Positions 14,495-60,972 are shown, counted from the whole stretch's first letter. The stretch is 60,972 nucleotides of DNA, filler included, from Hausera hauseri (GCA_046269625.1; 11 parts of 11 records of this genome joined end to end with filler, not necessarily neighbours in it); one strand, 5' to 3'. Program-made: numbers and translations. Notes: generated by a model not told the origin, from the letters alone.

Positions 14495-14498
14495 AGTG

Positions 14499-20537: not shown

Positions 20538-22255
20538 ACGGGCTGCAGCCTCTATTCTTTGTAATTTTAAGTATTAGTTGTTCCATAAATTCCTTTTCTG
20601 TTGTATCATTTTCAGTAATATTGTCTACTTTTTCGACGGTGAACTCAGGTTCTGCATCTAAGTCGACGTCTGGCGAAGTTCATGGTTATTTGTCATTTTA
20701 GTACTCATCGGAACACTCTTTTTCCGTGTCATGACAATTTGCTTAGGTGCTATAATATACTCATATTCAGTTTCTGATTCGGTTAAACCAGGGTACACTT
20801 CTAACAGTCTTAGCTTATTCCCATATTCATTTCCAGTTATTAGAATTTGTGGATTAGTAGTTTCAGGTTGAGCATCTAGAAATTTTCTCAAATCTTGTAT
20901 GTCGATAATAGTACCTGTATCTCCGCGAACACCATATTTCGTTTCTAAGTTCTTGTTGACTTTAATCATGCTAGTTTTATTAGGTTCGGTAAATGAAACG
21001 CTTCGTGGGTTCGGACATGACCGTGCAATGTGTCCTTCACCACAGGTGAAGCAAGCTAAATTTCCATTTCCGCCGACTCTGTCGACCGTCTTCATTCATA
21101 GGTAACTTACACCTATTCATGCTTCTATTGTACTCGTTTGGCGAAACTTTTGTCCTCTCTACGTTCCGTCGACTATCATTATTTCGGTTACCCTCATAAC
21201 GGTTTGAATAGTTAAAACCTCTGTAGTTTCCTCGATTTATATCCGAATTGGAATTCGCCGTATTCATATTTTGGCCATTAGCATAATTATTGTTTCGACT
21301 TTTTTGTAGTCATTATTACTATTTCTATTTTCATAATTTCTATTAAATCGTCTATCATCTCTTGCGCGATTATCATTCAGATTCCTATGGGTATGATCAT
21401 TCCGATTATTATTTCTATCATTTCTATCATTATGTCTAGCATATCTATCGAGTGCCATTTTTAAGTCTTGGACCAATTGTAGAGTTCTCTCTAAATTCTC
21501 GGGGTCTGCCAAAATGAAGTGTTTAACCAAATCTCGGGACCAAATACCATTAATTAATTGAGTCGTCATCATGACGTCTAGATCTGGCGGGGTTGCCTTT
21601 TCTGCAGCATTACGTTCTGCGTCTGATTTAGCTTTTGCTACATTAGATATTCTTAAGGTACTTACATAACTATTAGCAAGTTTCTTCAATGCAAATGCAA
21701 ACTGGGTTACCGATTCACCCTTTTGTTGCACTCTTTTGGAATGCCACAAGCTTCTGCTGCGGCGTTACTGTCGGCAATATTTACGGTTCAATGCTTCTAC
21801 AAGGGAGGACCAAGATTTCTTCTCGTCATTAGTGAGCTTACTATAAGCATCAGCGGCTAAATTCTTCAAATATAACGACAAACGTTTAATCATCACTTCA
21901 GGAGTAAGACTAGCACCTGCGTGCAATTTGTAAGTTTTCAAGAATTCATTAATCCGTCCGGATCATTATCGTATGCCGGCAGGTTCAGAGAATCGAAAGT
22001 AAAGATGTCCAGCTTCTGCGCTACTGGTGGGTTGTCTGCTGCCATACTAGTTTCAAAATGTGCTTTATTAACTTTTGGTTTCACGAGAGGAATTTTGAAC
22101 TTATCGGTTCGCTCAACGGCGGTTAAATCTGTATTAACTAAGTTTACTCTAGTTTCAGAAAGAGAACGTTTATCCAAATTTTTATTCTTCCTATATGTAT
22201 TTCTACGCGTCTGGCGTATGGGCGAGTTTTCCTTATCGTTTAAATTAAGGTTCAC
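20538..22255 (-). pseudogene. Ty3/Gypsy gag (capsid, Asn/Arg-rich linker, CCHC knuckle), frameshifted
   Basis: Contains KRLSLYLKNLAADAY..KSWSSLVEAL, QQKGESVTQFAFALKKLA and the knuckle CFTCGEGHIARSC. Confidence 0.8.
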
Positions 22256-23008
22256 TTTTAACCTATCAATATTTGTTCTCTGACAAATTTATTATTGAAA
22301 TCTTACCCAACTTATAACCCGAAATTTTAAATCTGAAACTGTATTCAATTACTTGGTGTACCGTTATCGAGTAGACAGATTGTGCCTTATTCAATAAATT
22401 AATTTTAGTACTGCTGGTACTCTCTTGCGGTCCTGTGCAAATGTTTAATAGAGTCTAATCTTATCTACTTATTTTACACTGAAATTTTAAAACACTTAGG
22501 GAAGTCTAATTACCCTTATGGGGCAATAGAAAACTATATAAAGATTTTTTAAAATATTTATATTTAAAAAAAACATAATTACAAGATCCTCAATTTATAC
22601 CAACAATCACTGATCACGTATCTCGATTATAACCAGGTTCAATTTCAATCACAATGAATCGTCTAAATTTTTGCAACTGCGTTGTTTGAGTTTCTGTGTC
22701 TCTGGTTTCTCTATGTTGTACTACTATTCAATTTCAACTAACACTAATTTTTGTCTCCCTTTAGACGATTGCGAATCACTTATATAGTCAGTCAGCTACG
22801 TGACTGTCTGATTCGTTGTAGTTATTTATAGTTTTCAATTCAATTTCTAGACATAATTTGCGAATTACTGATCATTTTTAACTGATTATTGTCTTGAAAA
22901 TTCAATATAATTTCAACATCCTTTCAAAAAGAAATTTTAATTTTGCCAAACTATAACTAAATTCCTTCTTATAACAGTATTTGGACGTCCTTATAATATT
23001 GGACGGTT

Positions 23009-23860
23009 TTATAACATTTTTCCTCCCTGAACGGCATCCTTGGATGTGCTCATTGCCTCAGGAGAGGTGATGACAAAACGTGACTCTCTTAGAAGATTAA
23101 TTCGTCGAGCCAGGCTCCTTTCCGATTTCGTATTCGTCGGGTTTTCTCGGGAACTTATTTCCAAAGCATAACTATAATGGGGTTTTATACGGACTACACG
23201 GGTATAACTGCCATTTGAAAAATACTTTAAATCGGTAGCCTTGGCTCTACACACTGGACATGTGGTCCACTTTTCTAAACAATCTCGACAGTATTTGTTG
23301 TCCCCAGTCACGGTTATTCAGCACAACGTATTCTTGCTGAAGGTTTGCCTCGCTTACTGGACATTCATTTTCCTCCTTGTCCCATTGTTCATAATCTACA
23401 TCTACGCGTATTATGAGCTCAATGGGTTCGAGTACGATACCATCTTTATCCTGTTATAAATAGCCATAAATTTGTTTTTGTTTGGGGTTTACTGAACTTT
23501 TCCTAGGGTCGCAACCTACTAGCACCAATGTCCAGTCGACAAGAGTATCTCGATCTAAGTCGGGAATCTCGCCTTCCATTCAGTATCTTTGATACTGCTT
23601 TTTAACAAGGTTTTCATCTGTTTATCCACTGGCACTGTTAACTTGCCATTTCTTTTTGACTGAAAAACTGGCGCGATATATTTTCCTATTTTAGGGTTTT
23701 CCCAAATATAGGTATTTTCATATACTTCTTGGGTCGGTGCAGTTTTGACGAAAAACATAGCCTTTTTAATTTTTTGGTGACTATAATATTCGGTGGTCAC
23801 CAGTGTTTTTGGATAATCTTTAGCTGTTATAAAATGCACATCTTCTTGGGCGCCTTTACT
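23009..23860 (-). pseudogene. Retroelement accessory ORF X (unknown domain) followed by a RING-HC finger
   Basis: AMFFVKTAP..KYIAPVFQSKRNGKLTVPVD..PDLDRDTLVDWTLVLVGCDPRKSSVNPKQK matches the ORF at 36371-37036. It continues ECPV(S)EANLQQEYVVLNN(R), then after a frameshift KYCRDCLEKWTTCPVCR. Confidence 0.65.
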
Positions 23861-24192
23861 TTTAAGGATGTTTACTTCTGTAGAAAGTTGTTAAAAACCG
23901 CTTTGTGGGATTCTGAATGTATATATCGATTTCCTGAATTTTTCTGAGATTATCTTCTGATTATTTACGGATGTTGTTTGAATTTCTCCTGTTATCTCTA
24001 AATCTCGGAGCTCATCTTTCGTTTTATGGGCTTGGCCTGGTATTTGAGTTCAATTTGTTTCTTTATTTTTCTTCCTAAACAAGTAATCGTAAAGAGATCA
24101 TTTTCTCTTAATTGCTGGCGTCTGTTCATTAATTTTTTTCTTTCTTTGGGGAGCTTGCGTAATTTTGAAGTTTCCAGCTGTAGCCGTTTCTT

Positions 24193-24432
24193 TTATGGTT
24201 GATTCCGGTTTTGAAGCTGATTACTTGATGGTTGAATTGGGTTTAGTATGGAGAATATGACTGGTATGGGCATTTCGGTACATATTTGATCTAGTTTCCG
24301 TATAGTTATTTTGATATTATCCTGGCCCATAGGTTCAACGACTCGACACGGAGAATACAAGCGATACTGCTTGCGATACTTCAGTAGAAGGAAGGGCGCG
24401 CATGAGGCCAACCACCCAGGATCGATGATCAA
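24193..24432 (-). pseudogene. Accessory ORF fragment homologous to the dsRBD-like part of 35907-36428
   Basis: LLLKYRKQYRLYSPCRVVEPMGQDNIKITIR aligns with ILIQKFQKGFSEYPIYRQVEPPGHNRFQVTIH. Confidence 0.5.
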
Positions 24433-24715
24433 TATTCAATAATTAATTTCTTTTAATTTTTGAATTTTTAAATTTTCAAAGTGCACTATTGATTTTAGCA
24501 CTTTGAAAGTGTGCAGCACTATTCGAATTCGGTGAAAATTTGGAAAATTTTCGAAAAAATAAAAAATGTATTTTTAAATTCGAATATCTTTTCACAGAGT
24601 TTTCGAATAATTTTTNNNNNNNNNNNNNNNNNNNNNNNNNNNNNNNNNNNNNNNNNNNNTTAATTAATTAANNNNNNNNNNNNNNNNNNNNNNNNNNNNN
24701 NNNNNNNNNNNNNNN

Positions 24716-25314
24716 TTTGCAACTCAATATTCAATCGACACTTTAAACCATCATCATCGGGTACATGAGACATTTCGCGACCGATAAAATCAAACAACTT
24801 CGTTTTCTGCGCTGGTAAATCGACAGATTCCTGTTGCACGGTCGTTTCGTTTAACCTTATATCCACGTTTAATTGATGTAGAGCATTAGAAAGTTTATCC
24901 AAATTTTTACCCGAAAGCCGTTTTACACGATAGCTGTACTTGGGTGCACATAGGGATACGGGATCATTCAATGAAATGAGTATGGGCGTTTGCAGAAAAT
25001 GCATTTCATACTTGCGAAAAATTCGTTTCGGTAAAAATATCTGTGTTTGGCATGCCGACAGTTTTGATTTTCGTTTATGTATTTCAATCATTGCATTTCT
25101 GTTTTGCTACTGATGATGATTTCTGAGCAAGTTTCTGTTTCATTTCCTGACAATCGATCTGCAGACAGTTGCCCGATTTTTCTAATTGTTTGACATTAGA
25201 AATGTCCTTTTTGTAACCAAACAACCATGACCAATCTAAACTTTCATCATTCTCACAACTACCATTATCATCATCATCATTGAGTAGAATCGTTTTATCG
25301 TCGTCGTCTTCCAT
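24716..25314 (-). CDS. Polinton hypothetical ORF(s) downstream of the TBP-like gene (MEDDDDK.. and MIEIHK..)
   Basis: Two overlapping ORFs, 25314-25084 and 25091-24716, with TATAAATA 32 nt upstream of ATG 25314. No recognisable domain. Confidence 0.4.
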
Positions 25315-25379
25315 GGCAGTAATGTCTGAATGAACATTGTAATGGTATTTATAGTTTGTTGCTGTTGTTGTGCAGAGTA

Positions 25380-25839
25380 CATTATTTTGATTTACTAAAA
25401 CATTTGTGTGGTTTTTAATTTGATTAATAATCGGTTCATAGTCCACTGTCCTAATACCGAGTACAACAATTTTTCCACTACTAAACATATTGACACAAAG
25501 TAGGCAAAACAATGTCAGTCTCAGTGCAGGAAACAGTTCGGATTCATACGTACATTCAGTGGCCATTGATAATTTGTACAGATTAATTGATGGACAGTCT
25601 AACTGAGTTGCTACCGTTTTTGATTGGATTTGGTGAATGACAATTCCGAATGGCAGTAGTTTAGCATCTGTGATTGGTTTGCGACAACCCATAATACGAC
25701 ACTTTCCCGATTGAAATATGATAAATATAAAATCCGGTGGACATTTGAGAAAATACTGCCTCGGCTTCCATTGATTAAAAGGTAGTGTGTTAATGTCACA
25801 CTCGGTAACATATCCGCGATAGTTGATATTAGCTGACAT
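25380..25839 (-). CDS. TATA-binding-protein-like protein, Polinton-encoded; the ORF reads on to 25084
   Basis: Both TBP repeats are present: NINYRG..IIFQSGKCRIMGCR and INLYKLS..TYESELFPALRL..VNMFSSGKIVVLGIR. Confidence 0.8.
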
Positions 25840-25904
25840 TATGGAAACAGTGTTTATACTATAGCTATTTATATATGTGTGTGTAACACGATTATAAACA
25901 AATC

Positions 25905-26563
25905 ATGTGGTGAGGAAAGGATGTATTATTATTATATAAATAAAGCTGCAGAATGATGCCATTTTCCAGATTGTAAGCTCCAGTGGAAGTGGAAAAACAC
26001 ACTTTGTGTGTAAACTATTGCAGAACTACCGTGACATTTTCCATTCACCGCGGTACAATCATATTTACTGGCATTAGGGTGTTGGTGATGATGGTGAGTC
26101 CGGTTTGACACATCGGGAATTTTGTAAATTAAAATCGATAACGGTAATTGATGTGTTTCATGAGAAGTGGTATGAGAGATTATGCAACGGTGACGTTATT
26201 GTCATTGACGATTTATTTCAAGAGGCAACGAAACAAACCGACTTCAACAACCTGTTCACGAAGATTGCGCCGTGGCGTGACGGTTATTTTCGTTACGCAA
26301 AACATGTTCCATCAGGGCGGATAACATCGAACAAGAAATCTGAACGCACACTATTTGATGTTGTTCAAAAATCCCTGTGATCAGACTATCATTGATTTTG
26401 TTGCACGAAAAGCATTTCCTTACAACCGAGCCTACTTGATAGATCTATATCATGGTGCTACGACCAAGCCACACGGATACTTATTCATTAACATTACACA
26501 ACAGTGTCCCGATGACATGCGTGTACGAACAGACATTTTCAATCAGAAAGGTGTGTCTATAAA
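25905..26563 (+). pseudogene. Polinton A32/FtsK-like packaging ATPase
   Basis: Walker A IVSSSGSGKT, Walker B VIVIDDLF, and LFKNPCD and ATTKPHGYLFIN..VRTDIF. Interrupted by stops and frameshifts. Confidence 0.88.
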
Positions 26564-26597
26564 CAAATTCGAAAATCGACGACATGATTGTGATAAA

Positions 26598-26702
26598 ATG
26601 AAGAATTTCCGAAAAACAATTGTTAAATGTAAACCTACTACCAAGCGGGTGTCCGGCGGCAAGAAACGTGAATCAAAACGAACCACCGCTACAGTCAAGT
26701 GA
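26598..26702 (+). CDS. Small basic putative core (pVII-like) protein
   Basis: Rich in K and R, with a VSGG adenain-type cleavage motif, inside the virion gene module. Confidence 0.35.
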   Translation: MKNFRKTIVKCKPTTKRVSGGKKRESKRTTATVK

Positions 26703-26803
26703 TTAACCAATTTTGTGCTTCGAACAAAAACTAGATGCAAATTACCGTCACAGTGGTAACGGTTATAAACAACTACGTCCCATCAGCATCAATACGTCCA
26801 AAA

Positions 26804-27123
26804 ATGCGATTCATACATAGTCATACGTACTTTATTGCTTTGCTCAAGGCACCTACGAGACAAGCGAAACATGTTGCGATCATTCCCAGTTTGTAGTAGC
26901 CGATTTGATGGAAATTTTATACAATATCGTTGTGGGTCACATTGACATTAGAAGTGGAAAGCGGAATTTACTAAGGTATCGAAAACGACTCATTGGCCTT
27001 GCCAATGCTTGTAGTAAACGACTGAAACGAGAGGTCATGTACCAACAAGATGGAGGATTCCTTGGTGCAATTCTACCGATTGTCACGTCATTACTGGGTG
27101 GAATCGTTGGTTCTGCAGCATAG
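26804..27123 (+). pseudogene. Polinton small virion protein with an adenovirus pX-like hydrophobic tail
   Basis: Sequence EILYNIVVGHIDI..KREVMYQQDGGFLGAILPIVTSLLGG. Confidence 0.65.
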
Positions 27124-27234
27124 TATAAACAATGACTATAAGTATATGGTGATACGGCGATATGGGTGCATAATTTTCATATTTCTGTCCTATTTTAATA
27201 AATCTTTCATTTATGTTTTGTTCAAATTGATGTA

Positions 27235-28279
27235 ATTCAAGCAAACCGACACCATTGACGGCAGCGATGGTCAACGTGTGGTTCGATCCGCGTCATCCAG
27301 TCGGGTATACTGGCGTCGATAAGCTGGCAAAGACTGTCAGACTCGGCAACAGACCCAACGTTGGCTCGGGAAACAGTTAGCATACAGGCTAAACAAACCG
27401 ATAAGAAGGCGGTTTCCAACTCGCGCATACCGTGCTACCGGTGTAAATGTATGGCACATGGATCTGATGGAAATGATTTTGTATGCCAGCATCAACGATG
27501 GGTATCGGTACGTGCTGACATGTGTTGATGTGTTTAGTCATTTTGCACGTGCAATTGCTGCCAAATCTAAATTCGGTAGAGATTGCCGACGCTGTTCAGA
27601 CACTGATACAACAACAGCCTTGGCATTTACAAACGGATTTGGGTAAGGAATTCTACAACGCCCACGTTGCAGCGGTCTTGAAACGGTTTGGCGTAAACCA
27701 CTACTCGGTGTTTACCCTATACCAGGCTGCACTTGTTGAACGATTTATTTGAACATTACGCGGTCATTTAAACAAATTCTTTGCGAAGCAAGGCAACGAA
27801 CTCTGGGTAGAGGTACTGCCGGATATTATTTATGTATACAATCATTCGACACACCATGGAATCAACGGAATGCGCCCGGTTGACGTAATCGATGATTTGG
27901 ACATGTGGCTTTATCAAAACCGAACAAAATGATAGGCAATTAAACGCCAAAAATATTAAATCGGTGCTTACGTACGTATTTCGAAAATAAGTACGATGCC
28001 ATTCATTAAGAATTTCAATCAGAATTGGAGCGACGAGATTTTCCGCATTTCGGCAATCAACACAAAACAAACTTCTCTCATGTACATTTTAGAGGATGAA
28101 AAGGGTGAGGAAATACGCTGTAAATTCTACGAACAGGAACTGCAGGTACTACCCGAGAAACCCCATATGATATTTAGGAAATTCTATGTTTACGTGGCAA
28201 AGTTTCGAATAAACAATATCTCGTCAAGTGGCACGGATACAATGCACCGAGCTGGATTTTTGCATCACAGATTCAATGA
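27235..28279 (+). pseudogene. Polinton retroviral-like (RVE) integrase with a C-terminal chromo-like domain
   Basis: Motifs WHMDLMEM..YRYVLTCVDVFS, LQTDLGKEFYN, AALVERF, YNHSTHHGI, NWSDEIFRI, FYEQELQ and YLVKWHGY..SWI. Confidence 0.9.
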
Positions 28280-29276
28280 GCAGAATTTACTTGCTACTTA
28301 ATAGTAACAGATCATTATCACAAAATGATGACAATGACAATACCGTTAAATAGTTTAGCATGCACTTAAACCGACCGGTCAATTTACGCCAGGGAGCCTG
28401 GGAAGTGGCTTTGACGGAATTCACATTTACATTTTTATCAATAACAATACGTCGGAACAGTGGTATTTACTTTATCCGACAAGAAACGAACCTTATTTGA
28501 AGTCGTTTGCGGACAATCCGACACAATAACCGATATATTCTTCGCAATTATTCGCCAGAAAATTTTTCGGTTTATGCTTATTTTTCAAACTACCCTATGA
28601 AACTAATGCATCAAAATCCCATGGAAATGCAGTTTAATTCTATAGCTGATGCTCAGGCATGGGGTTTTCAATCAGTCAATGTACACTCAAAACGTCTACG
28701 GCTAGGTGGACATGTTATAATTGGTGAAAAATTGGACCTTTCATCCGATGCGGAATCTGATATTATAGTAAAGTGGACTAAGTCAGAATCAGTCTTCCGC
28801 TCATGTATTATACCACACGATTTATTAGTGGAACTGGAATTCTGTGAGTACGTCAAGAAAGTGGCTACATTACCTGTAGAGACAATTTTGCCTTTGATGG
28901 ATTATTGGCTCGGAAACTGGGTTTTTCAAAACGCGACTTTTATCAAACCATTGTTGGACAATTTATTGTTGCCAAATACAAACCGCAACTCTATGGAGCA
29001 TTTCATATAATCAACATTTTAATGGACTGAACCGAATCCGTACTCGTTGATGGAGAATGTAAACAACTACTGGCTTCTATCGAACTGGATTCTGACACGT
29101 ACAAAACATCGGATGAAACTGTTCGAGTTAATATGCTCAGACCCATGTACTTATCATTGTCTCACAGTATTGTGCACAGTATTTCCGTGTATATGCTTAA
29201 TGAATTTTGGGAACCCATTAAATTTCTGTTTGGGTCAACGACACATTTGACGCTACATTTTCCACGTCGCCGATAA
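28276..29276 (+). pseudogene. Polinton minor capsid (penton) protein 1
   Basis: N-terminus MSRIYLLLNSN..LRQGAWEVALTEF and C-terminus LVDGECKQLL..PMYLSL..PIKF..TLHFPRRR. Confidence 0.75.
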
Positions 29277-29312
29277 TAAACAAACTACGTCATCATCATC
29301 ATCGTCGAGATC

Positions 29313-30712: not shown

Positions 30713-30717
30713 GATAA

Positions 30718-33042: not shown

Positions 33043-33049
33043 TCTTTGT

Positions 33050-33530
33050 TTATAGTTTAATCCAGCGCTTTGCCATTAACACTACACCACATCCTGCAAT
33101 AGGATTCACTCCGTTTTTCATGATGTACGGCAGAGAAGCCGTACTACCTACAGATTTAGGACTGATTCTATGCACAACAAGAACAGAAAACTTAGAGCAA
33201 AATTTTGTCGAGGTATTACAACTGAGACTATGCAAATGTTGAGAAATAGCCAAGGAATTATCCAGAGAATATCAAAAACAATTTAAGAAGCAGTATGACA
33301 AGAAGGCCAACCACACGACCTAGAACTAGGAAATTGGTTTTATGAACTCTATCCAGTGGCAAAGAAAGGCACATTTCTCAATCTTACCAGAGCAGGCAGA
33401 GGACCTTATGAAGTTACCAGAAATACGCCAACCACAGTCCATATCAATAAAAATGGCAAGGAGGAGGTCATATCAATACAAAGAGTAGTTAAAACGGAAA
33501 TAAGGCCAAGCAAACAATACAATCTACCTT
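33050..33530 (+). pseudogene. Gypsy integrase C-terminus (GPY/F module)
   Basis: FAINTTPHPAIGFTPFFMMYGREAVLPTD, FKKQYDKK and GPYEV. Confidence 0.85.
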
Positions 33531-33594
33531 CGGGCAAAGCAAAATTGGAATATACAAACAAAGAGAAGAAAACATCGTCGATAGTAACTAGACC

Positions 33595-34903
33595 AATATC
33601 GTATGTACAAATAGTCCTCGCCTTATCGTTAATCGCTTCATATATGCCAAAGACAAGATCGATAACCCTAACTGAAAAACTACAATATGAGGCAAGACGA
33701 AGGGATATCCAAAACTTGCAGTCACTTAGAGTATAAGATATGGATTAGAACAAACCATGTGCACGGTTTGATGCAAGTGAACTTATTAAGAGTCATGTAA
33801 AATTTCAAATAATATTTGTAACCAAATCTACGATGAGAACATGTGATGTTCCGTATGGAATTCATCGGAAATGTTGTGATTTTGATTTCGGACGAACCTA
33901 CCGATGCAAATTTCAAATGTTCTATTATAATCTGCCTGGAGCCCAAGCTTATATAATTACTGGGTTCTTAATAAGAATGCCTGAACGAAATAACACGAAT
34001 CAAGCCAAGACGAACGAAAGAGTCCGAAATACTGACCCATTTAAAAGGCTCTTAGATTATAACATTATTGGGATTTCCAAAGATTTAAAGAACTAATGTA
34101 TTCGAAGTGAGACTAAAATAGAATTGCCAGGAGATAGGCAAATTTCTATCCGATTTATACCAATGAATGCCTCGACTCCTACTCCGGAGTATTGTTATAT
34201 TGCACGACGACGGCTCACTGGGTGCTGTAGATTACAGTTAGGACACAACTACCAGTTTCATTTCGATCTATACAACACTTACCCAAAGGAACCAAGTACT
34301 TATTTAAAGGGATATCGCCCAGAAATCGGAATGTGGAAACTTTTGCTTCCAACCACTACGAGAAAACTGTCCACTGCTCCAAGTACAACTCTCACTACCG
34401 CAATTGTCACTTCAGATGAAACGCTCGAGAAAGAATTGGGAAGTATACCTGTCAAGATTTTGGCACAAAGTGATAAAGTTCTATTTTGCGCTGAAGAGAC
34501 GTTAAACTACAAAGTCAAAATTGAATGTCGCACTAATCAAATTATAATTTTAAGAAAGAATAGTGAGGAAACTGAATGCAAGTCATTACGACCGCAGCAT
34601 AACTATATAGTTCGAATCACCGCAAAAGGTAGAAAACCTAAGACTTTTACAGTGCGAACCCTTAATAACAAAATTGAAATAATGCAACATAAAGAACTTA
34701 GTACCCAAAATGCGTTTACCACGAGAAGTTCTATTGAGTCGAACAATTTACCGATAAAAACTATATTTAGTTTGTCAGTTTTCGTTCTTGTCACATTAAC
34801 GGCGATGATTTTTCTAGTTTCCAAAAATTGTAAGAAACGCAGTAAAAATCGAAAGGGAGATAAACGGGTAAAATGTGCTGAGACGGACTTTATAAGAGCA
34901 TAA
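33595..34903 (+). pseudogene. Type-I membrane protein in the env position (signal peptide, ~3 FN3-like domains, Thr-rich stalk, TM, basic tail)
   Basis: Same reading frame as the integrase tail, with three in-frame stops. Signal YVQIVLALSLIAS, FN3 motif SLRPQHNYIVRITA, TM IFSLSVFVLVTLTAMIFLV followed by SKNCKKRSK. Confidence 0.6.
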
Positions 34904-34980
34904 CCTGACAATTACAGATCAGGTTATCCTATCATCAAACAGAGGAAATGTTTTGTTTCAAAACGCTGATCTGTCTTAGG

Positions 34981-35003
34981 ATTGACCTTTATTTTTATTT
35001 TAG
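34981..35003 (+). promoter_or_regulatory. Putative splice acceptor for downstream accessory ORFs
   Basis: ttgac branch point, a T-rich tract and ttag. Conserved in the related element at 56954-56978 (minus strand). ATG follows at 35014. Confidence 0.45.
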
Positions 35004-35597
35004 CAGAATAAGTATGGCCGAAAAGGCAAAAAATTCAGCAACCAGCTCCGGATATGACATTGACGACTTCCTGTAACAACATGTAACAGTACTCAAGGCA
35101 CTATCTAAAAGCTTATATCGCCAAATTGGAGAGAATTTAAAAAACAACATTTATCTAGAAATCGATCAGGAGAGCAAAATACCAAATGGGTTGAAATGGG
35201 GCTTAGAGGACAATCGACTGATCTGACTATTTGCGATTCGAAACCCAAGGGATGCACGAGCATATCTTTTGAGAGATATAATTCCATACGAACCGACACA
35301 TCAGCAATTGTACATACATGTCGCTGATGGGGAAATTCAGTACAGGATCGTAGGGCAATCCTGGAGCACACAAAATGGACAACAGTGAAAATTTAGCACT
35401 TATGAGTTATTTTGTTATAGCCTCATGGACTATGGTTTGGAGTTCAGGATCGCAGAACTTCCAACCAAACTCATGTTCGAAATGATCTGCCGTATAGAAG
35501 TGCGTACAGAAACTCTCAGAAGAGGAGATAAAACAAAATGAGGAGTCTTACAGGCTGGTTCCAGACGGCAGAAACGCGCAAATTCTAACCGTGAACT

Positions 35598-36428
35598 ATG
35601 GCCCCAATCGAAATCTCTATCCAAAGTACAAACGGAGAAGAACTTATAAACAAAATAATCGCACCTAAAACTAAGGTAAAAAATACATTTCTCGATGTTA
35701 CTGGAATTACGAAGATACAGCTTGAAAAGAGCAAGGATTTCCTAGAAATCCAGGAAGATATAAGCCATTGCTTATATGGATTCATTGTAACCGGATTAGG
35801 AGTGCACAAAATGTTAGAAAAACTAGGAATTAGACAAGAGTATATAGTCGGAATTTGTGAACTAAGTCGAAATCCAGCGGTTGTAAACTGAGTATAAAAC
35901 ATCCTAATGAGGAAAGGAGAATACCTCCTTCCGCCAGCATCACGTAAATCAGAGTTCAAGATGATGTTAGAAGCCATGGTTGGTGAACAATTTAGATTTC
36001 CTAAATTGATGTCGGGAAGTCAACGAACAAGGCTTATAAGAGATATTTATGTCTCACTACGATGGGAACATGAGTGGAAGCCTAGGAACCCTACACATAA
36101 TGTGATGTCTGACAACAACCCAAGAATTCTGATACAAAAATTCCAAAAAGGTTTCAGCGAATACCCAATATATAGACAAGTTGAGCCTCCAGGACACAAT
36201 AGATTCCAAGTAACTATTCATAACAGCCCAGCTATCACAACCAGTAGCCAGCAAAATCCATCGGCCAGCCAAGTCCAAAATGAAATGGTAATGTTCCTCA
36301 ACAAAGCAACGGGAAGTCTGAAAGTGAGTATTGGGGAAGTTCCGAGAGGCCAAAGACGAAAACTTCCTTCTTGGAGTATATTAGCAAGAAGAGAAGTAAA
36401 ACCAGTAAGAATCAGGGTGAAGAAATGA
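35598..36428 (+). pseudogene. Accessory ORF (one frame, single TGA at 35889) with a dsRBD-like, possibly RNase III-like, C-terminal half
   Basis: ORFs 35598 and 35907 share a frame. EFKMMLEAMVG is followed by NPRILIQKFQKGFSEYPIYRQVEPPGHNRFQVTI. Confidence 0.4.
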
Positions 36429-39144: not shown

Positions 39145-39175
<31 letters not shown>

Positions 39176-52412: not shown

Positions 52413-53520
52413 TATACTGGCAAATCATCGTCTTGACAGATTTGCGCGAATATCAACAATTCCGTTCTAGGCGGAATGTTTTCGTCGACTGGAATCCATA
52501 CTTCGCCGGGCTCTCTTTCCTTATTAATCTTAGTTCCTTTTATTGGTCCGAGCTCGATTAATCTCGAAGTACTCAAATCTACCGCAACGTTTGGTGAACG
52601 TCTCAATATATCACACCCTAACACTACGTCGTCTGTTAAGTGTTCCATTATAGAAAATTCATGTTGGAATGTTTGTCTCATTATTTTAAGATTAGGATTC
52701 CACTTGAATTTCGGTCCTGATTCTTGTCCGAAAGCTCCTATACTTCCGGGATCGGTTGCAAGTGGTAGTCGTAATTGATTGCGTAACGTTTTCGGTATTG
52801 ATCCGTCCTTTATGAATGATTTCTCTGATCCGGTATCTACCAATGCGTAACTTCCCAATCGTCAATACTAATTTTGGCGAAAGGTTTACCTTTTATCTTG
52901 GGCTATTTAACGACTAATATCTTGTACCCATTTATACTAATTTCTGGTGCTTTATTCTCGGCTACTTGTCTTAATTCCTCAATGGGATACAATCCATTAT
53001 TTACACTGTTTTCGTTGTCTCGATCAGGCGTATTGATTAGCGGTTCTCGGTTGTTTTGGTTATGGAAGGATTGCATTTGTGGATTATCCCAAATTAGTGA
53101 TAGCTTCTATATTCCGTGAAATCCTTGGAGAGTATATTACTCTGTGGTCATCCAGCGAGTGGCGGCATAATTCAGATTTTTCCTTAATTCGGTACATTTT
53201 CCGTAACACGCCGTATTGTTTTGTCCCTTCACAGGGATCTTCGTAACTGAAAGGCATTCGATAAATTTCCGAACTATAGGAGTTAATAGATCTCTTATCG
53301 CTGTCTTTGTATTGGGATACTAGAGGAGGCAACATTAGCAAGGGCGGCCTAAACGTCTTACGATTGCCTATCTTGGAGACTGCGTCTACTCCCTTAGGCT
53401 CATCATCATCCTAATCGTTTTTCCGAAATTTTGTATTTCCTTGTCCTATAAAAAATAGATCTTCTCTTTCGTTTTCGATTATAATAACCAACGTGTCTCT
53501 CCACATCGCTTTTCCATTTG
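52413..53520 (-). pseudogene. Gypsy aspartic protease and long pre-protease region, same family as 60100-60972
   Basis: YALVDTGSEKSF..DDVVLGCDIL. MLPPLVSQYKDSDKR..EDPCEGTKQYG matches MLPPIAPVYEDCDKR..EDPYEGTKRYG. Confidence 0.8.
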
Positions 53521-53524
53521 GTCC

Positions 53525-54531
53525 TCATGATCCCAATATCCAATTTACAGTCGCTTGCGATCACCTTGTGGTATAAATCTGCTAATCCGATTTGCCCTTT
53601 ATAATAGAAGTAATTACCTCTATTCTTCAAGTAGTCTTCTATTCTTACATCTTGTGTTTCGAGAGCAAAAGTACTTATTGCGGCTTCTGCTACGAATAAT
53701 GCTTCGCAATTAGTGACGTACATTACTACATTGCATCAAGAAAGCATTTGTTTCTTAATGAACTTTAACCCGTTATCTTCGGAGATCAGTATCGTAGGTG
53801 TAGACTGTTCAGCGACGTCCTTCCCTGATATGGCATTATTGTCGGTTGTGTCTACATCTTTTTCACGTAGTTTCGTTAAAATTTACTTCTATTTTAATAA
53901 AGTTACAATCGTTCATAGGTGGTGGAGTCCAAATAACTATCGAACTTCAGAAAGTATAGGCACCATCTTGGATATGACACTTCTGATTTTCTGTATGTTT
54001 TTATAACACTATGGAACATCACCCTTTGGTTTCTCATTCTCAGATATCGCCCACTACTATTCCTGCTTCTCTTCCTTTTCCTGTATCGTACTCACCCCTT
54101 TTACAGTATCCGGTGTGCATGTCTAATTTCCCAATTGCTGCATTATACACTCGAATTTCTTTCCTGGTTGGGCTTCTAATTCCATCCCATCCCATCTCAA
54201 TCTACCTGTTTCCTTGGTTTGTTTGCATTGTTGTCGGTCTAAATCCATAGGAATTAGCGAAGCCGTTGGTCTTACGATTGACGAATGGCCGTGCATGTTT
54301 CCAGTGGAAAATGCTTCGCGATCGTCGTAACATACACTATCCCGTCTATTGCGCGCTGTTGGTACAAATACTTTTCTCAATGGTTACTAACTTGTGAGGT
54401 CGGGCGTCTTCGAACAGTTCCAGATCCATCAAGGAATATCTTTGTCCAACCTCAAACTTATCGTAGTCATATACTGTGATTGCACCGAGCTGTCTTATTA
54501 ACATCATAAGTGTTATTAGTTTAATAATCCA
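53525..54531 (-). pseudogene. Class III (herpes gB/chuvirus-G-like) fusion glycoprotein, N-terminal half, frameshifted
   Basis: Signal WIIKLITLMMLIRQLGA, then in order ITVYD(Y)..YSL, CMLRRSRSIFH/MHGHSSIV, LDRQQCKQTKETG, GYCKRGEYDTGKG..GIVV, KCHIQDG..IWTP..DC, CNVVMYVTN..LFV and YLKNRGNY..LADLYHKVIASDCKL. Confidence 0.65.
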
Positions 54532-56813
54532 ATTTGATTCAATATCTCGCGCTGAGTTAGTTGGTATTAAATTTCTTAACACATCTTCAATTCTAGTGGT
54601 CGGCCTGTTTCCATCTTCGTCGTCAAATAGCTTGTACCAATTTATCTCTAGGTATCTTCCTAGCAGCTTTTCTGATCAATCCAATGGTTCTATTGAATTC
54701 ATTCTCTTTTAGGGGATTTGTCTTGATTGCCAAGTACAATATTACTTTCCTTAATTCTTCCTTAGTATTCGCTACCATAATTTTCTCGATTAAAACTTCG
54801 TCAGGTAAGTTGCTTTTACTCATTTTAATCCGAAATGTTCTAAGTATTCTTGCAGTATCATATTGCTTTTTCTTTTTCGTCTAACATCTCGTTTCTTGGT
54901 CCCGAATAATTCAGTATTTTGATGTTTCTCAGCAACTCGTTCAATTCTTCGCTATCGGAGTTAATCGCGGATATGGATAGTTGCCTTAGTTCTCGTATCA
55001 GGGCTGCACTTAGGTCAATATCATCTCTTATTTTTCTCGGCCTTCCAACTGGTCGTTTCTGTTTCGGCGCAGTTGGTATTGCTTCGCTAATCGGTACTAG
55101 ATTCTTATCGTATTATTCCTTATCTTCCTCACTTTGGAGGTAGTCAAAATACATGACAAGGTCTCGGATTCCCATAATACGTCCTACGCAATGTTCATCT
55201 CTCACTTCCCTTACAGCCTCGTCTTTTGTCTGTTTATCGATAATTATAGCAACTATTCGATTTGATTCCTCTGGAATAATTCCAACGTCTATTAGTAGCT
55301 CAGGTTTGTCCAATATCCTAACTCGGAAATATAATCGATAATTTACTTCGTCTTTCCCACCATTTTGTACTATCCATTGTTTTACTTCTCTAACCTATGT
55401 TATCGTTGTGCACTCAGTTTCTCTCTCTTTCATCCATTCAGCTGATATTTTTACCTTGATCGTCGTTTCGGATTTAGCTGTCAAGAAATCAGCGTATTTC
55501 TTTATCAGTAGTCTTGGCACTGAGCTATAAACGATATTTTCGCTTAATAGTTTGGTTAATGTAGGGATCAATTGTCTCAGTTTGCTCTCCGTCATGATGA
55601 TGTTAATCTGCGCAGTTAATCCTCTCTCGGCCTGTGCGGGATATAAGAGCATGTCCATATAAAATCGTCGGTCTGTTGGAAAAATATCCTTTTGTTGTAG
55701 TTCGATGGGTGTTTTTGGGTTTTGGTTGTACACATCCTCCAAATAAACATCCCATCCTGAACCGCCGGCGACGTCTGGTAATCCATAATCTAGTAATATC
55801 GTGGACATACTTCGTACATTTTCGCGTATCTTGTTTAATCTCAACTGTACTTCTCTTATTAAGTTGGTTCGAAACTCTGCTCCGTTTCCACACACAAGTT
55901 GTATAGTTTTTAATGTCGGTCCTAGTTCATCTGTAGGGAACAATCCTTTTCTGTCGTAATCTGTTAATTCGGTCGTTACATCCGTTAACCATCTTTGTAG
56001 GAATTCTCTTTTATTTGCTAACTGTGATTGTGTGATCTTATATTTATTCTAATAAATATGAAATTATTTCCCTAATTCACATAGCTTTGTAGTTCTTTGC
56101 TTTGTGCGAATTCGCAATTCTTCTACATCTTTAACTTGAGTTGTCAATTGTCGCGTCTTGTCGTCATCTATCTCTGCCATTGTTGATATCAGCTATACTA
56201 GTCCGTGCATTTCTTTTAGAGTTTTCGAATCTCGATCTATTTCTTAAATCAGTCTCTTTACAAATCTAGCTTTGTCTGGTGTGAGGTGACAATCTTTGGT
56301 TATTTCTATCAAGTTAGCATGGCAATTTTGGTCGGTACCCAATGCCCATTCAAAAGGACGATGTAGATATTTTAATACTTCTTGTAACGCAGTCCGATGA
56401 TTTGGGCAAATATCCAACGTCAATAAATCGCATATGGATGTTTCATCTATGGACCTTGTTGCCAAATTTCGTACACCTTCTAGGCGGACACCTTTTAGTC
56501 TCGTCTATAAGGAGGAGATCTTTTCCTGTTTCGCCAGTAATTCAATTTCTTCCATCGTGGTAAACAATTCTTCTGTGAGTTTTATTTCCTGATTTTTACT
56601 CATAAATCCTAGTCTCAATAATGCGTTATATATTCAATGCGTTATATTCAGCCTCTATTTTGTAAGCATCTAAGTTACGAAGTATTTCCTTTAACTGTAG
56701 TTTTAATATCGGTTTACATTCCCAATACTTCCTTAGACGATATTTCGTTAGACTCACTAATCTGTCTAACAGTTCAATCCATTCTTTGAGTTGGTTATCT
56801 ATCATTGGTTTCG
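54532..56813 (-). pseudogene. Unassigned decayed polyprotein upstream of the glycoprotein, including an AT-hook
   Basis: A run of same-strand ORF remnants with KRPVGRPRK at about 55031-55060. No other recognisable domain. Confidence 0.4.
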
Positions 56814-57029
56814 NNNNNNNNNNNNNNNNNNNNNNNNNNNNNNNNNNNNNNNNNNNNTTAATTAATTAANNNNNNNNNNNNNNNNNNNNNNNNNNNNNNN
56901 NNNNNNNNNNNNNGCTTGAACTGATGTTTTCGGCTTTTCCTATACTTACACTTCTAAAAATAAAGAAATAAAGGTTAACCTTAGGACAGATAATCGTTTT
57001 AAAACAAAACATTTTCTGTAATTGTCAGG

Positions 57030-57210
57030 TTATTCTATCATAAATATTGTCTCGGTAACCTTTTTCCCGTATATCTCCCTCCTGATTTTTGTCGCTTATT
57101 ACAATTTTTGGAAAGTAAGAAAATTGTTGTCGTTTATATGATGAGAACGAATGTTGACAGACCAATTATTATCGGTAAGTCAGTTGGCTCAATTGAATTT
57201 CCCGTACTAA
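57030..57210 (-). pseudogene. Remnant TM and tail of the env-position membrane protein; ectodomain deleted
   Basis: KKGTSLNLT joins directly to NSIEPTDLPIIIGLSTFVLII, matching SSIESNNLPIKTIFSLSVFVLV at about 34730-34800. Confidence 0.6.
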
Positions 57211-60200
57211 TCGTAAGATTCAAAGATGTGCCTTTCTTGGCTACTGAATAATGTACATAAACCCAATTTCCTCGTTCTAAATCATGCGATTTTGTTTTTT
57301 TATCGTATTGCTTTTTAAACTGTTCTTGATATTCTTGGGATAACTCTATTGTGATTTCCCAACATTTTTGTAATCGCGCCTGCAATACTTCTGCAAAATT
57401 TTGTTGTAATCTTCGGGATTGACCGTGTATGGCATCATTCCTAAGTCTGTGGGTAACACAGCTTCACGTACATACATCATGAAAAATGGCGTAAATCCTG
57501 TTGTCGGATGCGGAGTAGTATTGATAGCAAACTGAGTTCCTTGTAAGAATTCGTTCCAATCTTCTTGGTCCTTAGCTAGGTGATACTGAAGGTGATACGC
57601 AGTAGTAATTAATCGTTCGATTTCGAATATTTTGGTAATCTTCTCAAATAGTGCACTTGTAAAATTTCTTCGTCGATCTGTTAATATTTAGTCTGGAGGT
57701 CCATATTGGCAAATGAGCTTTCTTACTACGGATTCTGCCAAAGTTTCTGCCTTTCAATCAATTAACGCAATCAACTCGACAAAATGAGTTAGTCGATCAA
57801 TACAAATTAAGATATATTTATTATTCTTATGGGTCGTGGGTAGTGGTCCTATGATATCCATTGACATGGCTTGCATGGGTCTGTCCGGTACGTCGATTGG
57901 TTTCAGTTCCGCCATGTAATTTTTCGTCTTCTTTTGTTTTGTCGCAAATACTAAACAAGCATTCACCCAATTCTTTACATCAATATAAATGAGGGGCCAA
58001 AAGTAATTGTTCAATATTCTTTCCAATGTTTTCTTTCAGGACTCGTGCCCTGCCAAATATGAATCATGTTCCGACATTAAAACTTCAATTCGTAAGGTTT
58101 TTGGAAAAAATATCCGTTTTCTTCCTTTTCGCTCATAAAATAGACGATTTTCGAGACCCTTGTTGTTCAGAACGCAATATTTGTGTCCATGTCTTCGTAG
58201 ATGCTTCTTTAATTGTCGTCCTTTTGGCATTATGTCCTTCTCAGCAAATTCTATAATCTGATGGAGAATTCTATCCTTTCTTTTTTCGGTTGAGATTTTA
58301 ATCGCTTTATCCATCGTCAATGTACGTTGGCGATTTCTTATTTCTTCAAGCTGACTTTTCTTCATTACAGTGATTGCACTTGTTTTGGTTTTTAATCTTG
58401 ATAGTGCATCGGCATCTACATGTTTATTTCCTGGCTTATAATGGAATTCGATATTGTATCTCCATATTTCTTCGATCCATCTGTTAAGTCTACATGTCGG
58501 GTTATTCGCTCGGCCCTTTAAAGTCGTGACGGCTTTGTGATCATTGACAGTTATAATTTTCTGCCCGTATACGTAAACGTTGAAGTGTCGAAGCGCTTTT
58601 TTACGGCTAGAGTTTCTAATTCGGTAACAGAATAATTTTTCTCGGCATTCTTTAAGGAATGTCCTCTATAAGCAATCGGGTGTTCTAATTCTTCATCTTT
58701 TCTTTTCTGCGCTAATTCATATCCAGTATCTTCTTTACTTGCGTCTATCTTGATTATAAAGGGTAAGTTAAAGTCTGGGTATCGTAAAACAGGTTCGCGT
58801 GTTAATATCCTTTTTATCTCCTCGAAAGCTTTCTGTTCGACGTCTGTCCATTTCCATTTAATTTCCTTTTTAAGTAGACGACATAAGGGTGCATTAATTT
58901 TTGAATTATCTGACACATAAGTTGCGTAATATCCGCATAGTCCTAGCCAGTGCCTTAAATCTTTCTGGTTTTGTGGTTCCATGCAAACTGACATTTTGTT
59001 CAATAACGATTTATCTGGTTTCGATCCTTCTTCTCCAACTATATGGCCAAGATAGGATACTGCGTTTTAAGCCCATTTACATTTCTTAGAGTTTAATTTC
59101 AATCCGTCCTGTTCCAGCCTCATTAGTGTATGTTCAGTATCCTTTTAATGTTCCTCTTCTGTCTTCGACGCTATCATTACGTTGTATAAATATGAGAAGG
59201 CATGGTCCAGTCTCATTAACACCTTATTCATCATTCTTGTAAAAATAGATGGCCCAGTAGTGATACCAAAGTTGATGATATTAAATTCGTACACGCCATC
59301 GTATGTTTTAAAAGCCGTTTTATATCCTCATCCTCTATTTCTACTTTCCAATATCCGGATTGTAGATCCCGAGTGGTGAACCATTTTGCTCTCGAAAATC
59401 TGTCAAAAGCCTCTTTTACTGACAGTAATGGGAAGGAATCTTTCATCATAAGATTATTTGAGGCTCTGTAATCAATACAGAATCTATGTTTTGTGGTACC
59501 TTTCTTCTTAACCATGATGATTGGTAAATACCAAGATCTATAGCAAGGCTTAATTATATCAGCCTTAAGCATTTGTTCGACTTTCTTCGTTATCTCAAGC
59601 TTTAATGAATGTGGCGGAGGGTACCATTTTGGCATACTTTGGTCTTCCAAGTCCATTTCTTCGTTCGAACGCGGCTTTTTCTTGAGCGGGAAAGCCAGTT
59701 TTAATGCTCTCGCTCTACCGATATCTTTTTCGTCCTTAGCGATAATCGATTTATTGCGGCATAATAATTCAGATAATTGACAATAAGACTCGGGTGAAAA
59801 ATTAGTTTCAACATGAGGTGGAAATTCGGCATATTTAAAAGGTTTTTCTTCAATAATTATCGACAATACTCTATAGGTATTCCTAAGAGTGGTATAAGCA
59901 TGTAGCCTGACGTAGATCTGTGCGTTATTAGCTATTCTGATCGGCACCCGACCGGAGTGTACTCTTGTTGGTATATGGGTGAATATTACAATCGGATCTA
60001 ATGTATCCTTTGGTTCAAAATATACCGGCTGATCGTCATATTTCTGTATTTGGGCATAAATTATCATCTCTGTTTTTGGTGGAATGTCTTCGTCTACAGG
60101 TATCCACATCTCTCAAAATTTTCTTTCTTTCGCGTTTTTTATACCTTTATTTAGACCGATTTTTACCAGCATCCCCGTTTGTAACTCGATCACTATATTC

Positions 60201-60972
60201 GGTAGTCTTTTCAGTTCATCACATCCTAAGACAGCGTCATCGGTTAATTCTTCTATAACTGCAAATTCATGACGAAAATTTTGTCAAATTATTTGGACTT
60301 CTGGGTTCCATTTAAACATTGGTTTTGACATTTGACCAAAAGCTCCGGTACTTCCTGGATCTTTTGTAGACGGTGGGTATAACTGTCTTGAGCGTTTGAG
60401 GTATTTAATTATTTTTAATGTAAGACATCTCCGACCCTGTATCAATTAATGTGTACACTTTCCAGTCTTCGATAACGATTTTAGCGAAGCAACGTCCTTC
60501 TCTTACTGTTCCAAAACAGTTCGATGCTACTTTTGCGCGTTTAGTCACTGATATTTTATGCCCATTAATTCGGATTTCCGGGAAGGATACTATGTTCTCC
60601 GCCAGTTGCCTCAACTATCAATTTGGATATAATTCATTGTTTTCGATGATTAAGTTTTCCGATTCGTGAGTAATGATTAGTGGTTTTCGATTGTTAGTGT
60701 GTATTTCGGTTTTCTGGAAGGTTTTCAACCTTGGATTTTCCCAAACCGTTAATCTAGTTTCTATGTTCCGAGGTTTTCTCGGAGAATACAACATCCTGGA
60801 ATCATCCACGGGCTGTCGTTAACACATTTTCCGTATGATCCCGTAGCGTTTCGTTCCTTCGTAAGGGTCTTCTACATTAATTGTTCTTTTATAGAGTTCC
60901 GTCTGATATGAACTCACTGGTCGCTTGTCGCAGTCTTCATAGACTGGAGCGATAGGAGGTAGCATAGACAAT
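57200..60972 (-). pseudogene. Ty3/Gypsy pol (PR-RT-RH-IN), decayed
   Basis: LIDTGS; HRFCIDYR; DLQSGYW; the YxDD site is mutated to YLYN; DASK..YSVTELE; EHDSYLAGH; SMDIIGPLP; TPFFMMY. Confidence 0.9.

Follow-up and report, generated by a model that had tools for sequence, protein, structure and literature searches.

Decayed copies of a probable env-carrying Ty3/gypsy lineage in Hausera hauseri, with a candidate second membrane protein and a 3' series of small ORFs

Do the Gypsy-like pieces scattered over four contigs of Hausera hauseri (GCA_046269625.1) belong together, and what would the element behind them have looked like? The window analysed here is a stretch of 60,972 nucleotides in which 11 parts of 11 records of this genome are joined end to end with filler; the pieces lie in contigs 5, 7, 10 and 11, from position 20,538 to the end. 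We consider it probable (about 0.6) that they stem, as old and now inactive copies, from several related families within a single env-carrying, GAG-ENV-POL (Burro-like) Ty3/gypsy lineage, whose host is most likely a triclad flatworm. The composite would begin with an LTR, gag, a long spacer, an internal signal with a class III env, protease (PR), a linker, RT, RNase H (RH) and integrase (IN). Its 3' part would comprise a second signal with an FN3-type ectodomain and transmembrane segment (TM), a stop, a splice-acceptor-like site, ORFs A, B and X, a RING ORF, a polypurine tract (PPT) and an LTR.

The initial annotation had linked the contigs by pairwise overlaps, and these are real, at 60-73% nucleotide identity and with a coding signature. 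Contig 10 (52413-53335) matches contig 11 (60021-60965) at 61% nucleotide identity (E 1.7e-67). Contig 7 matches contig 11 twice, 33069-33387 against 57531-57213 at 73% and 34713-35038 against 57213-56921 at 68%. Contig 5 (23464-23739) matches contig 7 (36942-36670) at 60% (E 3e-11); at the protein level the match extends to 24109/36353 (E 5e-12) and continues into ORF B, where none of 1000 shuffles equalled it. Six of the seven aligned blocks have an excess of third-codon-position changes at P<0.05, the exception being the TM block (P 0.15). Overlapping copies support the succession of pol, FN3/TM, acceptor-like site, ORFs A, B and X, and RING. Contiguity within single contigs covers spacer-env-PR (contig 10), PR-RT-RH-IN-TM-acceptor-ORF A start (contig 11), IN-FN3-TM-A-B-X (contig 7) and B-X-RING-PPT-TG (contig 5). 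'Complex-retrovirus-like lineage' is a fair label for this arrangement, while other parts of the original proposal have to be trimmed. The copies are only 60-73% identical, hence several families and not one. Gag cannot be chained to the spacer by homology, for contigs 5 and 10 share none (the best of nine frame pairs was equalled in 2 of 200 shuffles); what ties gag to the rest is an LTR-like stretch in contig 5. Finally, the summed minimum length, 14.3 kb with two LTRs and about 13 kb internally, falls below the 20 kb that PMC6431247 sets as the bar for 'giant' Gypsy elements.

Contig 10 supplies the stretch before and including the protease:

54860..56813, minus strand: long coding spacer upstream of env, broken (frame openness)
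53430..54530, minus strand: class III (HSV gB/Monjiviricetes-type) env, signal-like stretch and N-terminal half (Pfam PF24664, hydropathy)
52413..53410, minus strand: pre-protease region and aspartic protease (Pfam RVP, E 3.5e-4; homology to contig 11)

In its own frame the spacer has 7 stops over 591 codons; the other two frames have 64 and 34. A homologue search returned one related protein, P0010 (E 4e-14), and a Pfam scan of the 591-codon frame and its neighbouring frames, over a spacer that is incomplete, returned no match, whether to BIR, BCL2, MATH, ankyrin or SUMO-like domains or to any other. Inside what had been annotated simply as a long spacer, directly before the protease, lies the env, which had been missed. 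PF24664 matches it in two stretches (E 2.3e-4, below the curated cut-off), the better one, 53798-53526, covering positions 248-345 of the 653 in the profile, and the match lies about 700 nt before PR. This copy, with its signal-like stretch at 54528, is broken by frameshifts and stops. Hydropathy reveals no hydrophobic segment between env and PR: the C-terminal half and the TM are absent, a property of this decayed copy and not necessarily of the lineage. Compared by eye, the env is nearer to 6 S. mediterranea ENV rows than to 18 nematode and 6 virus rows. It is because the spacer holds a class III env that we file the lineage under the GAG-ENV-POL, errantivirus/Burro-like layout. The adjoining pre-protease block is lineage-specific, with 49% amino-acid identity between contigs 10 and 11.

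Pol itself is found in contig 11:

57214..60972, minus strand: pre-PR, PR, linker of about 245 aa, RT, RNase H, integrase (Pfam RVT_1, RT_RNaseH, Integrase_H2C2, rve)
56914..57213, minus strand: deletion junction (57213), integrase tail joined to TM segment, then acceptor-like stretch and ORF A start (alignment with contig 7)

The order PR-RT-RH-IN is that of Ty3/gypsy, in a copy with many stops and frameshifts; the PR-RT linker has no Pfam dUTPase match. A quick RT-RNase H tree of 59 rows, with no Burro sequence among them, was unresolved and left contig 11 as a long branch. Searches with RT and with RH-IN retrieved 8 and 52 proteins respectively, all of them generic Gypsy proteins of 19-41% identity with no flatworm errantivirus pol among them; none of these proteins matches env, FN3 or ORF X. 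A viral contig search gave 0 loci; of two metagenome scans, one gave 0 loci and the other 3, all belonging to unrelated Gypsy elements. Compared with contig 7, contig 11 is missing 1,325 nt (integrase tail plus FN3 ectodomain), a difference that had escaped the earlier description. An insertion in contig 7 was considered in place of a deletion in contig 11 and rejected, since the extra segment opens with a standard integrase tail.

What follows the integrase is best preserved in contig 7, where the element is limited to 33069..~36942 by other repeats on both sides:

33069..33510, plus strand: integrase C-terminus including GPY/F (p58-C)-type tail (match to contig 11 and protein P0012)
33581..34903, plus strand: membrane protein in frame with the integrase tail, broken by three stops (hydropathy, module repeat, frame openness)
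34904..35013, plus strand: conserved non-coding stretch, putative splice acceptor (branch-point-like and pyrimidine-tract-AG features)

The integrase tail matches residues 1533-1591 of P0012, overlapping the Integrase_p58_C domain of that protein, and the frame running from integrase to TM has 3 stops over its 534 codons, whereas the off-frame counts are 34 and 47. The membrane protein consists of a signal-like hydrophobic stretch, about three beta-sandwich/FN3-like modules, a TM helix at 34748-34834 and a basic tail. Pfam fn3 matches at E 0.078 and a comparison with FN3 single-pass proteins in the Atlas reached 0.85; a low-confidence structural model (pLDDT 37.6) shows one helix and seven strands and resembles Ig and FN3 folds equally well (Z up to 5.8). 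These three weak and partly independent signals all lean towards FN3, none of them passing its threshold. Foldseek on this model found nothing at E<=0.001, and a homologue search with the FN3-TM ORF found 0 matches among 369 candidates; Kelch-repeat (SAKe) matches were rejected as sums of 2-5-bit pieces. Among the matches listed in the literature searched there was no FN3-bearing LTR element. In two unrelated long polyproteins, P0013 and P0049, a protein running from a signal to a TM lies in frame between gag and PR; in P0049, hydrophobic segments occur behind the integrase as well. The non-coding stretch downstream is identical to contig 11 at 74 of 94 aligned columns (79%), above its coding flanks, and is a putative splice acceptor.

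Beyond it come the small ORFs, seen in contig 7 and, in part, again in contig 5:

35014..35541, plus strand: ORF A, broken, 3 stops in 175 codons (frame openness)
35595..36428, plus strand: ORF B, broken (frame openness, homology to contig 5)
24196..24400, minus strand: ORF B copy, C-terminal part (homology to contig 7)
36284..36942, plus strand: ORF X (homology to contig 5, stopping at ~36942 where another repeat begins)
23400..24109, minus strand: ORF X copy, broken (contig 7 homology; third-position excess, P 0.008 and 0.010)
23009..23366, minus strand: RING-finger region, broken by a frameshift (Pfam zf-C3HC4_3)

Contig 11, too, has the start of ORF A. Upstream of ~24420 in contig 5 a different high-copy repeat begins; nesting is common here, contigs 5 and 7 both being cut by other repeats. 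A dsRBD had been proposed for ORF B and the corresponding spacing is visible, yet the domain was not confirmed: Pfam and PDB gave no match, and a two-sequence model has two helices and no strands. An Atlas search with ORF X gave no usable match. The RING is suggested by a zf-C3HC4_3 match at 23293-23231 (E 2e-4, below the curated cut-off) that covers, of the eight zinc ligands of a C3HC4 RING, the four cysteines of the C-terminal half; the N-terminal half is broken in the contig 5 copy.

After ORF X, contig 5 continues, in the order already described, through RING and non-coding DNA (here measured at about 900 nt) into gag:

23017..23028, minus strand: polypurine tract, 12 nt, overlapping the last codons of the RING ORF (purine-run-plus-TG scan)
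22442..23016, minus strand: putative single LTR (motif scan: TG start 23016, TATA-like box 22786, candidate CA end 22442)
22289..22441, minus strand: leader (sequence; many other run X1 contigs map here)
20538..22288, minus strand: decayed gag and start of the post-gag region, running off the end of contig 5 (Pfam, protein matches)

Gag is recognised by Retrotrans_gag (21878-21669, E 8e-4) and one zf-CCHC knuckle (21056-21009, E 0.009); its closest match among the compared proteins is P0013, a long gag-membrane protein-pol polyprotein. Because the RING stop is followed by a purine tract with TG, contig 5 reads best as a 3' end, one shared LTR and then the next gag. The tract and TG sit exactly at that stop and form the longest of three purine-run-plus-TG sites in contig 5; under the same rule contigs 7, 10 and 11 have none. 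The putative LTR has 28% GC, and its candidate end, about 575 nt from the TG, has possible alternatives. No convincing primer-binding site was seen in the leader. In read run X1, summed depth is only 7-10 over 22578-22985, while gag reaches 370-39,000 and RING-X 450-2,350; at 80% identity this LTR core is not common to other copies, whereas gag and RING-X are. The exactly matching X1 contig in the putative LTR has depth 6.1, against 5.9 for one in ORF B/X, which, depth being no copy number, argues faintly against two collapsed LTRs. None of the 8 listed X1 pieces bridges the RING-LTR or LTR-gag junction. The run carries 40% of the words of contig 7 and may be source data, and is thus not independent support. 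Tandems with one shared LTR are common in plants, according to PMC11899658.

The drop in depth is a reason to ask whether contig 5 is a chance neighbourhood, in which a B-X-RING-PPT 3' fragment lies next to an unrelated gag with unique DNA between them; the tail would then be real and the gag unchainable. The missing gag-spacer homology and the repeats that interrupt contigs 5 and 7 point the same way. The U3 part of LTRs diverges fast, however, and the contig 5 copy has many private changes; both parts lie on the same strand, the PPT and TG fall exactly where the RING ORF stops, and a TATA-like box and, some 575 nt from the TG, a candidate CA end follow. We hold such a coincidence to be unlikely. 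Less likely again is that env and the FN3-TM protein belong to different sub-lineages with a common pol and never stood in one element, FN3-TM having perhaps replaced a decaying env. Env is seen only in contig 10, where it has no anchor, the FN3 ectodomain only in contig 7, and contigs 10 and 11 are just 61% identical; against this, contig 11 combines the pre-protease block of contig 10 with the TM and flank of contig 7, and the P0049 polyprotein has membrane segments on both sides of pol.

The boundary of the LTR might also be misplaced. The small ORFs would then be contained in an exceptionally long LTR, of at least 3 kb, which begins directly behind the TM codons and carries several genes in its U3; contig 7 would represent a 3' end, and contig 5 would be a normal 5' LTR followed by gag. 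This would explain contig 5 without a tandem, and there is a purine-rich stretch at ~34855-34876 in contig 7 and in its contig 11 match; Burro LTRs measure several kb, and one Dugesia element has an accessory ORF upstream of the polyprotein. Yet the purine-rich stretch does not satisfy the purine-run-plus-TG rule in contig 7 or in contig 11 and is explicable by basic tail codons, while 23028-23016 passes, and the sharp change in sharing at ~23000 fits a boundary there. We regard the long LTR as the least probable of the three.

Under the reading of old copies from one env-carrying lineage, contig 5 would be a head-to-tail tandem with one common LTR, and its gag would be part of the lineage. 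Both membrane proteins would come from one polyprotein, freed by signal peptidase and the element's protease, env serving in membrane fusion and the FN3-TM protein in attachment or as a receptor decoy. The small ORFs would be expressed from spliced RNA; RING might counter host defence by working as a ubiquitin ligase, and RNA export might be regulated by ORF A or B, by analogy with the spliced CERV of Cer1. Host-modulating roles of this kind are conjecture. Several observations weigh against the one-lineage reading: the env, FN3 and RING matches are all under Pfam curated cut-offs, the bridging contig 11 covers neither env nor FN3 ectodomain, and no contig has env and FN3 protein together. A second LTR, a target-site duplication and a clear primer-binding site were not found in these contigs. 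A further, tentative proposal, which we would sooner bet against than for, is that this retrovirus-like flatworm lineage makes two surface proteins out of a single polyprotein, with a class III fusogen ahead of the protease and a captured, receptor-like FN3 protein behind the integrase, and in addition spliced 3' regulators, among them a RING ligase. If true, invertebrates would have come independently to a complex-retrovirus organisation, one in which fusion and attachment (or decoy) roles fall to two different genes. If FN3-TM and the spliced tail are constant in it, they become candidates for the means by which such elements choose target cells and weaken defences based on piRNA or ubiquitin, in animals that have adult stem cells.

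How does this compare with known systems? The GAG-ENV-POL layout is already published for flatworm errantiviruses and planarian Burro. By contrast, we did not find described in the literature the region between pol stop and LTRs of env-carrying flatworm Gypsy elements, and the in-frame FN3-type single-pass membrane protein after integrase, the conserved acceptor-like site and ORFs A, B, X and RING are apparently undescribed. Platyhelminthes GAG-ENV-POL Ty3/gypsy errantiviruses carry an HSV/gB-type ENV (S. mediterranea errantivirus 1-6; PMC13524379). They resemble the present lineage in their class III env before pol, in a comparable ORF span and, by eye for S. mediterranea errantivirus 1-6, in env cysteine spacing and the stretch before the fifth cysteine; the env here is, by contrast, truncated. 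For 8 of the 9 flatworm rows no LTR was found within 3 kb of the ORFs, a result that would be compatible with long accessory flanks, and the words 'fibronectin', 'accessory' and 'splice' are absent from the main text of that paper, where FN3-TM and 3' ORFs are undescribed (PMC13524379).

Burro/GYPSM1 (PMC6431247) has its env between gag and PR as well, matching mononegavirus glycoproteins, together with a long gag-PR spacer, an extra PR-RT linker, accessory ORFs and ubiquitin-related domains. It differs in an internal region of up to 25 kb (against a minimum of about 13 kb here), in 2-3 gag zinc knuckles (against one in the decayed contig 5 copy) and in BIR, BCL2, MATH and ankyrin domains, none of which occurs in the parts covered here; that review makes no mention of a post-integrase FN3-TM for Burro. 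Cer1 of C. elegans, a Gypsy-group element that is sister to a flatworm errantivirus (PMC13524379), offers a model for the small ORFs in its spliced CERV, needed for genomic RNA export, although CERV has H, M and G domains and exons in common with gag (PMC10309623). Bdelloid rotifer LTR elements, finally, have captured accessory ORFs after pol, some with TM segments, and a dUTPase between PR and RT; theirs is a single ORF3 (F-type env, GDSL, DEDDy or TM), in place of the in-frame FN3-TM, several ORFs and RING seen here (PMC5408684).

The pieces of the element lie on four of the 11 short eukaryotic contigs of the window:

20538-24615 (contig 5): ORFs B and X, RING gene, putative LTR, gag
32849-37220 (contig 7): integrase tail, membrane protein, ORFs A, B and X
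52413-56813 (contig 10): envelope region, protease
56914-60972 (contig 11): protease, reverse transcriptase, RNase H, integrase

The initial annotation had chained these contigs by pairwise homology into one giant Gypsy family, and the overlaps themselves hold. Contigs 10 and 11 share 61% identity over 975 columns. Contigs 7 and 11 share two blocks (73% and 68% identity), and contigs 5 and 7 are 60% identical over 286 columns, and in translation this last overlap continues across ORF X and reaches ORF B (matched by 0 of 1000 shuffles). No nucleotide match connects the gag of contig 5 to the spacer of contig 10, and the best of nine frame pairs was equalled by 2 of 200 shuffles: The sequence gives this link no support. 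Differences are in excess at third codon positions in six of the seven aligned blocks (P 0.008 and 0.010 for the two ORF X blocks, 0.04 for ORF B; tested in the transmembrane block, the excess is not significant), which indicates that the small ORFs were still coding while they diverged. None of the four copies is intact, and it is gene order within each contig, together with coding constraint, that is directly observed. Such elements are usually assigned to one family at 80% identity; at 60-73%, the four copies therefore represent separate families rather than a single one.

In contig 7 the element spans only 33069 to about 36942, and the sequence on either side of it matches other repeats of contig 9. 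The first 177 nt of contig 7 (32849-33025), adjoining the Gypsy integrase, recur at 95% identity at the start of contig 9 (41854-42030), and contig 6 has a small gene related to this repeat. The window also comprises:

1225-2988, minus strand: CCR4/CNOT6 gene without introns (PDB E 2e-161)
6587-10980 (contig 2): simple-repeat scaffold; blocks 7828-9317 and 9390-10879, with identical ORF translations, are likely an assembly duplication
11081-15915 (contig 3): gene-dense, intron-free; a methyltransferase flanked by two malate dehydrogenases; peroxisome-type C-terminal tripeptides, which may point to a kinetoplastid symbiont or contaminant
17069-17584, minus strand: neuropeptide-precursor look, with Gly-Lys-Arg processing sites; no Pfam match
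24716-32748 (contig 6): decayed element, by its gene layout putatively Polinton/adintovirus-like; integrase core (Pfam rve E 6e-4) on one strand, TBP-like gene on the other (25087-25902; Pfam TBP E 2.6e-10)
40827-41714 (contig 8) and 48452-51800 (contig 9): second, unrelated short Gypsy family, gag 58% identical, protease and reverse transcriptase in contig 9
43056-43928, plus strand: single-exon rhodopsin-family GPCR (Pfam 7tm_1 E 3.5e-8)

The non-overlapping parts of the composite sum to 14,296 nt with two LTRs, to which the missing half of the envelope gene and a gap must be added. This sum does not by itself make the element 'giant', a word that the available text of PMC6431247 keeps for internal regions above 20 kb. 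The nine flatworm errantiviruses in the accessible portion of PMC13524379 span 12.0-18.0 kb as given, eight of them without a called LTR. LTRs were sought there up to 3 kb beyond the ORFs, and uncalled ones would fit long accessory flanks.

Contig 5 reads, from its sequence, as the 3′ end of one copy, then an LTR, then the gag of the next. The final codons of RING run into a 12-nt purine tract (23028-23017) with TG directly after it; within the putative LTR a TATA-like box stands at 22786, and 22442 is one of three candidate CA ends. The same scan found no purine run plus TG in contigs 7, 10 and 11. Alternatively, the 3′ end and gag may be neighbours by chance. Assembled contigs of sequencing run X1, which may be the source data of the window itself, were placed on contig 5 at 80% likeness (7,389 placed). 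Their summed depths, which are no copy numbers, are 370-39,000 for gag and leader, 450-2,350 for RING-X and 60-200 for the ORF B/X start, and only 7-10 for 22578-22985; the putative U3 is not common to other copies at this threshold, and this favours chance neighbourhood. Against it, exact-match X1 contigs give a depth of 6.1 in the putative LTR versus 5.9 in ORF B/X – again no copy number – which is not the picture expected of two collapsed LTRs. Tandems with a common internal LTR are described as frequent in plants in the part of PMC11899658 at hand. That gag belongs with the chained element we hold to be the better reading, with a probability of about 0.6-0.7.

An envelope gene, absent from the initial annotation, lies in contig 10 about 700 nt upstream of the protease. 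The Pfam family Monjiviricetes_fusion (PF24664) matches a short piece at E 0.012 and a longer frame, in two stretches, at E 2.3e-4; a signal-like hydrophobic stretch begins at 54528. Compared by eye and unscored, the cysteine spacing, read across three frames, follows that of six Schmidtea mediterranea errantivirus ENV rows in the available portion of supplement 2 of PMC13524379, a likeness which includes the stretch preceding the fifth cysteine. The 18 nematode and six virus rows of the same portion, also compared by eye, are less alike. This resemblance of the envelope suggests a triclad flatworm as the host. The match stops at profile position 345 of 653, and no hydrophobic transmembrane segment was found downstream of it, so that the C-terminal half is missing from this copy.

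A second membrane protein follows the integrase in contig 7, where the integrase tail, another signal-like stretch (33581), an ectodomain and a transmembrane segment (34748-34834) share one frame, which has three stops in 534 codons where the two others have 34 and 47. The evidence for a fibronectin type III (FN3) fold is weak but consistent. Pfam fn3 matches at E 0.078; a low-confidence model (mean pLDDT 37.6) predicts seven strands ahead of the transmembrane helix and matches Ig/FN3 sandwiches with Z up to 5.8, the middling range of the tool; Atlas neighbours, taken as a lead only, are FN3 single-pass proteins at 0.85. Of the ectodomain modules, 1 and 2 are alike (31 of 2000 shuffles), and the two remaining pairs are not (635 and 113 of 2000). 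Contig 11 lacks exactly the stretch 33388-34712 of contig 7. Because this stretch opens with a standard integrase tail, contig 11 has suffered a deletion, and an insertion in contig 7 is ruled out. By eye, an apparent second, short internal deletion affects the integrase core of contig 11 (about 57600-57560), beyond the Pfam rve match.

Past the stop of the transmembrane frame, contigs 7 and 11 agree in 74 of 94 aligned non-coding columns, and branch-point-like and pyrimidine-AG features immediately precede the ORF A start. This conservation supports a cis-signal, putatively a splice acceptor. ORFs A, B and X match no Pfam family, nor has ORF X a usable Atlas match; the double-stranded RNA-binding likeness once ascribed to ORF B is not confirmed. 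The putative RING protein matches its Pfam family in the C-terminal half only (E 2e-4).

Homologue searches returned generic Gypsy proteins and no close relative, and an RT-RNase H tree did not resolve the placement of contig 11. Three fetched proteins are parallels in architecture, without sequence match to the envelope or FN3 proteins. P0013 (3,336 aa) and P0049 (3,753 aa) carry a cysteine-rich stretch ending in a transmembrane segment between gag and protease, P0049 having hydrophobic segments after the integrase as well, while P0012 has a signal-to-transmembrane protein in frame after it. P0013 is also the best match of the contig 5 gag (E 5e-5). This gag-membrane protein-pol polyprotein is catalogued under a gammaproteobacterial MAG; probably host DNA got into the bin.

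Both membrane proteins would be made as parts of a single polyprotein, with internal signals to thread them. The envelope protein would act in membrane fusion, the FN3 protein in attachment or as a decoy, and a spliced RNA would express ORFs A, B, X and RING. The RING protein may be a ubiquitin ligase, a role established for this domain. As to what is already known, the available text of PMC13524379 places an HSV/gB-type ENV as GAG-ENV-POL in flatworm, nematode and bryozoan errantiviruses, and that of PMC6431247 describes in Burro an env in frame between gag and protease that matches glycoproteins of mononegaviruses, so that the core layout is not new. This is a known kind of element, in which the post-integrase FN3 protein and the ORF A-B-X-RING tail are the part for which no description was found in the accessible portions of the literature searched, including PMC5408684, PMC8532177, PMC11410931, PMC13238120 and PMC6338049. 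The novelty of this protein and tail is provisional: The original Burro description, Repbase entries or the figures of PMC13524379 may already show the tail. For the spliced-RNA step Cer1 serves as the model: according to the available text of PMC10309623, export of its genomic RNA requires the spliced CERV protein.
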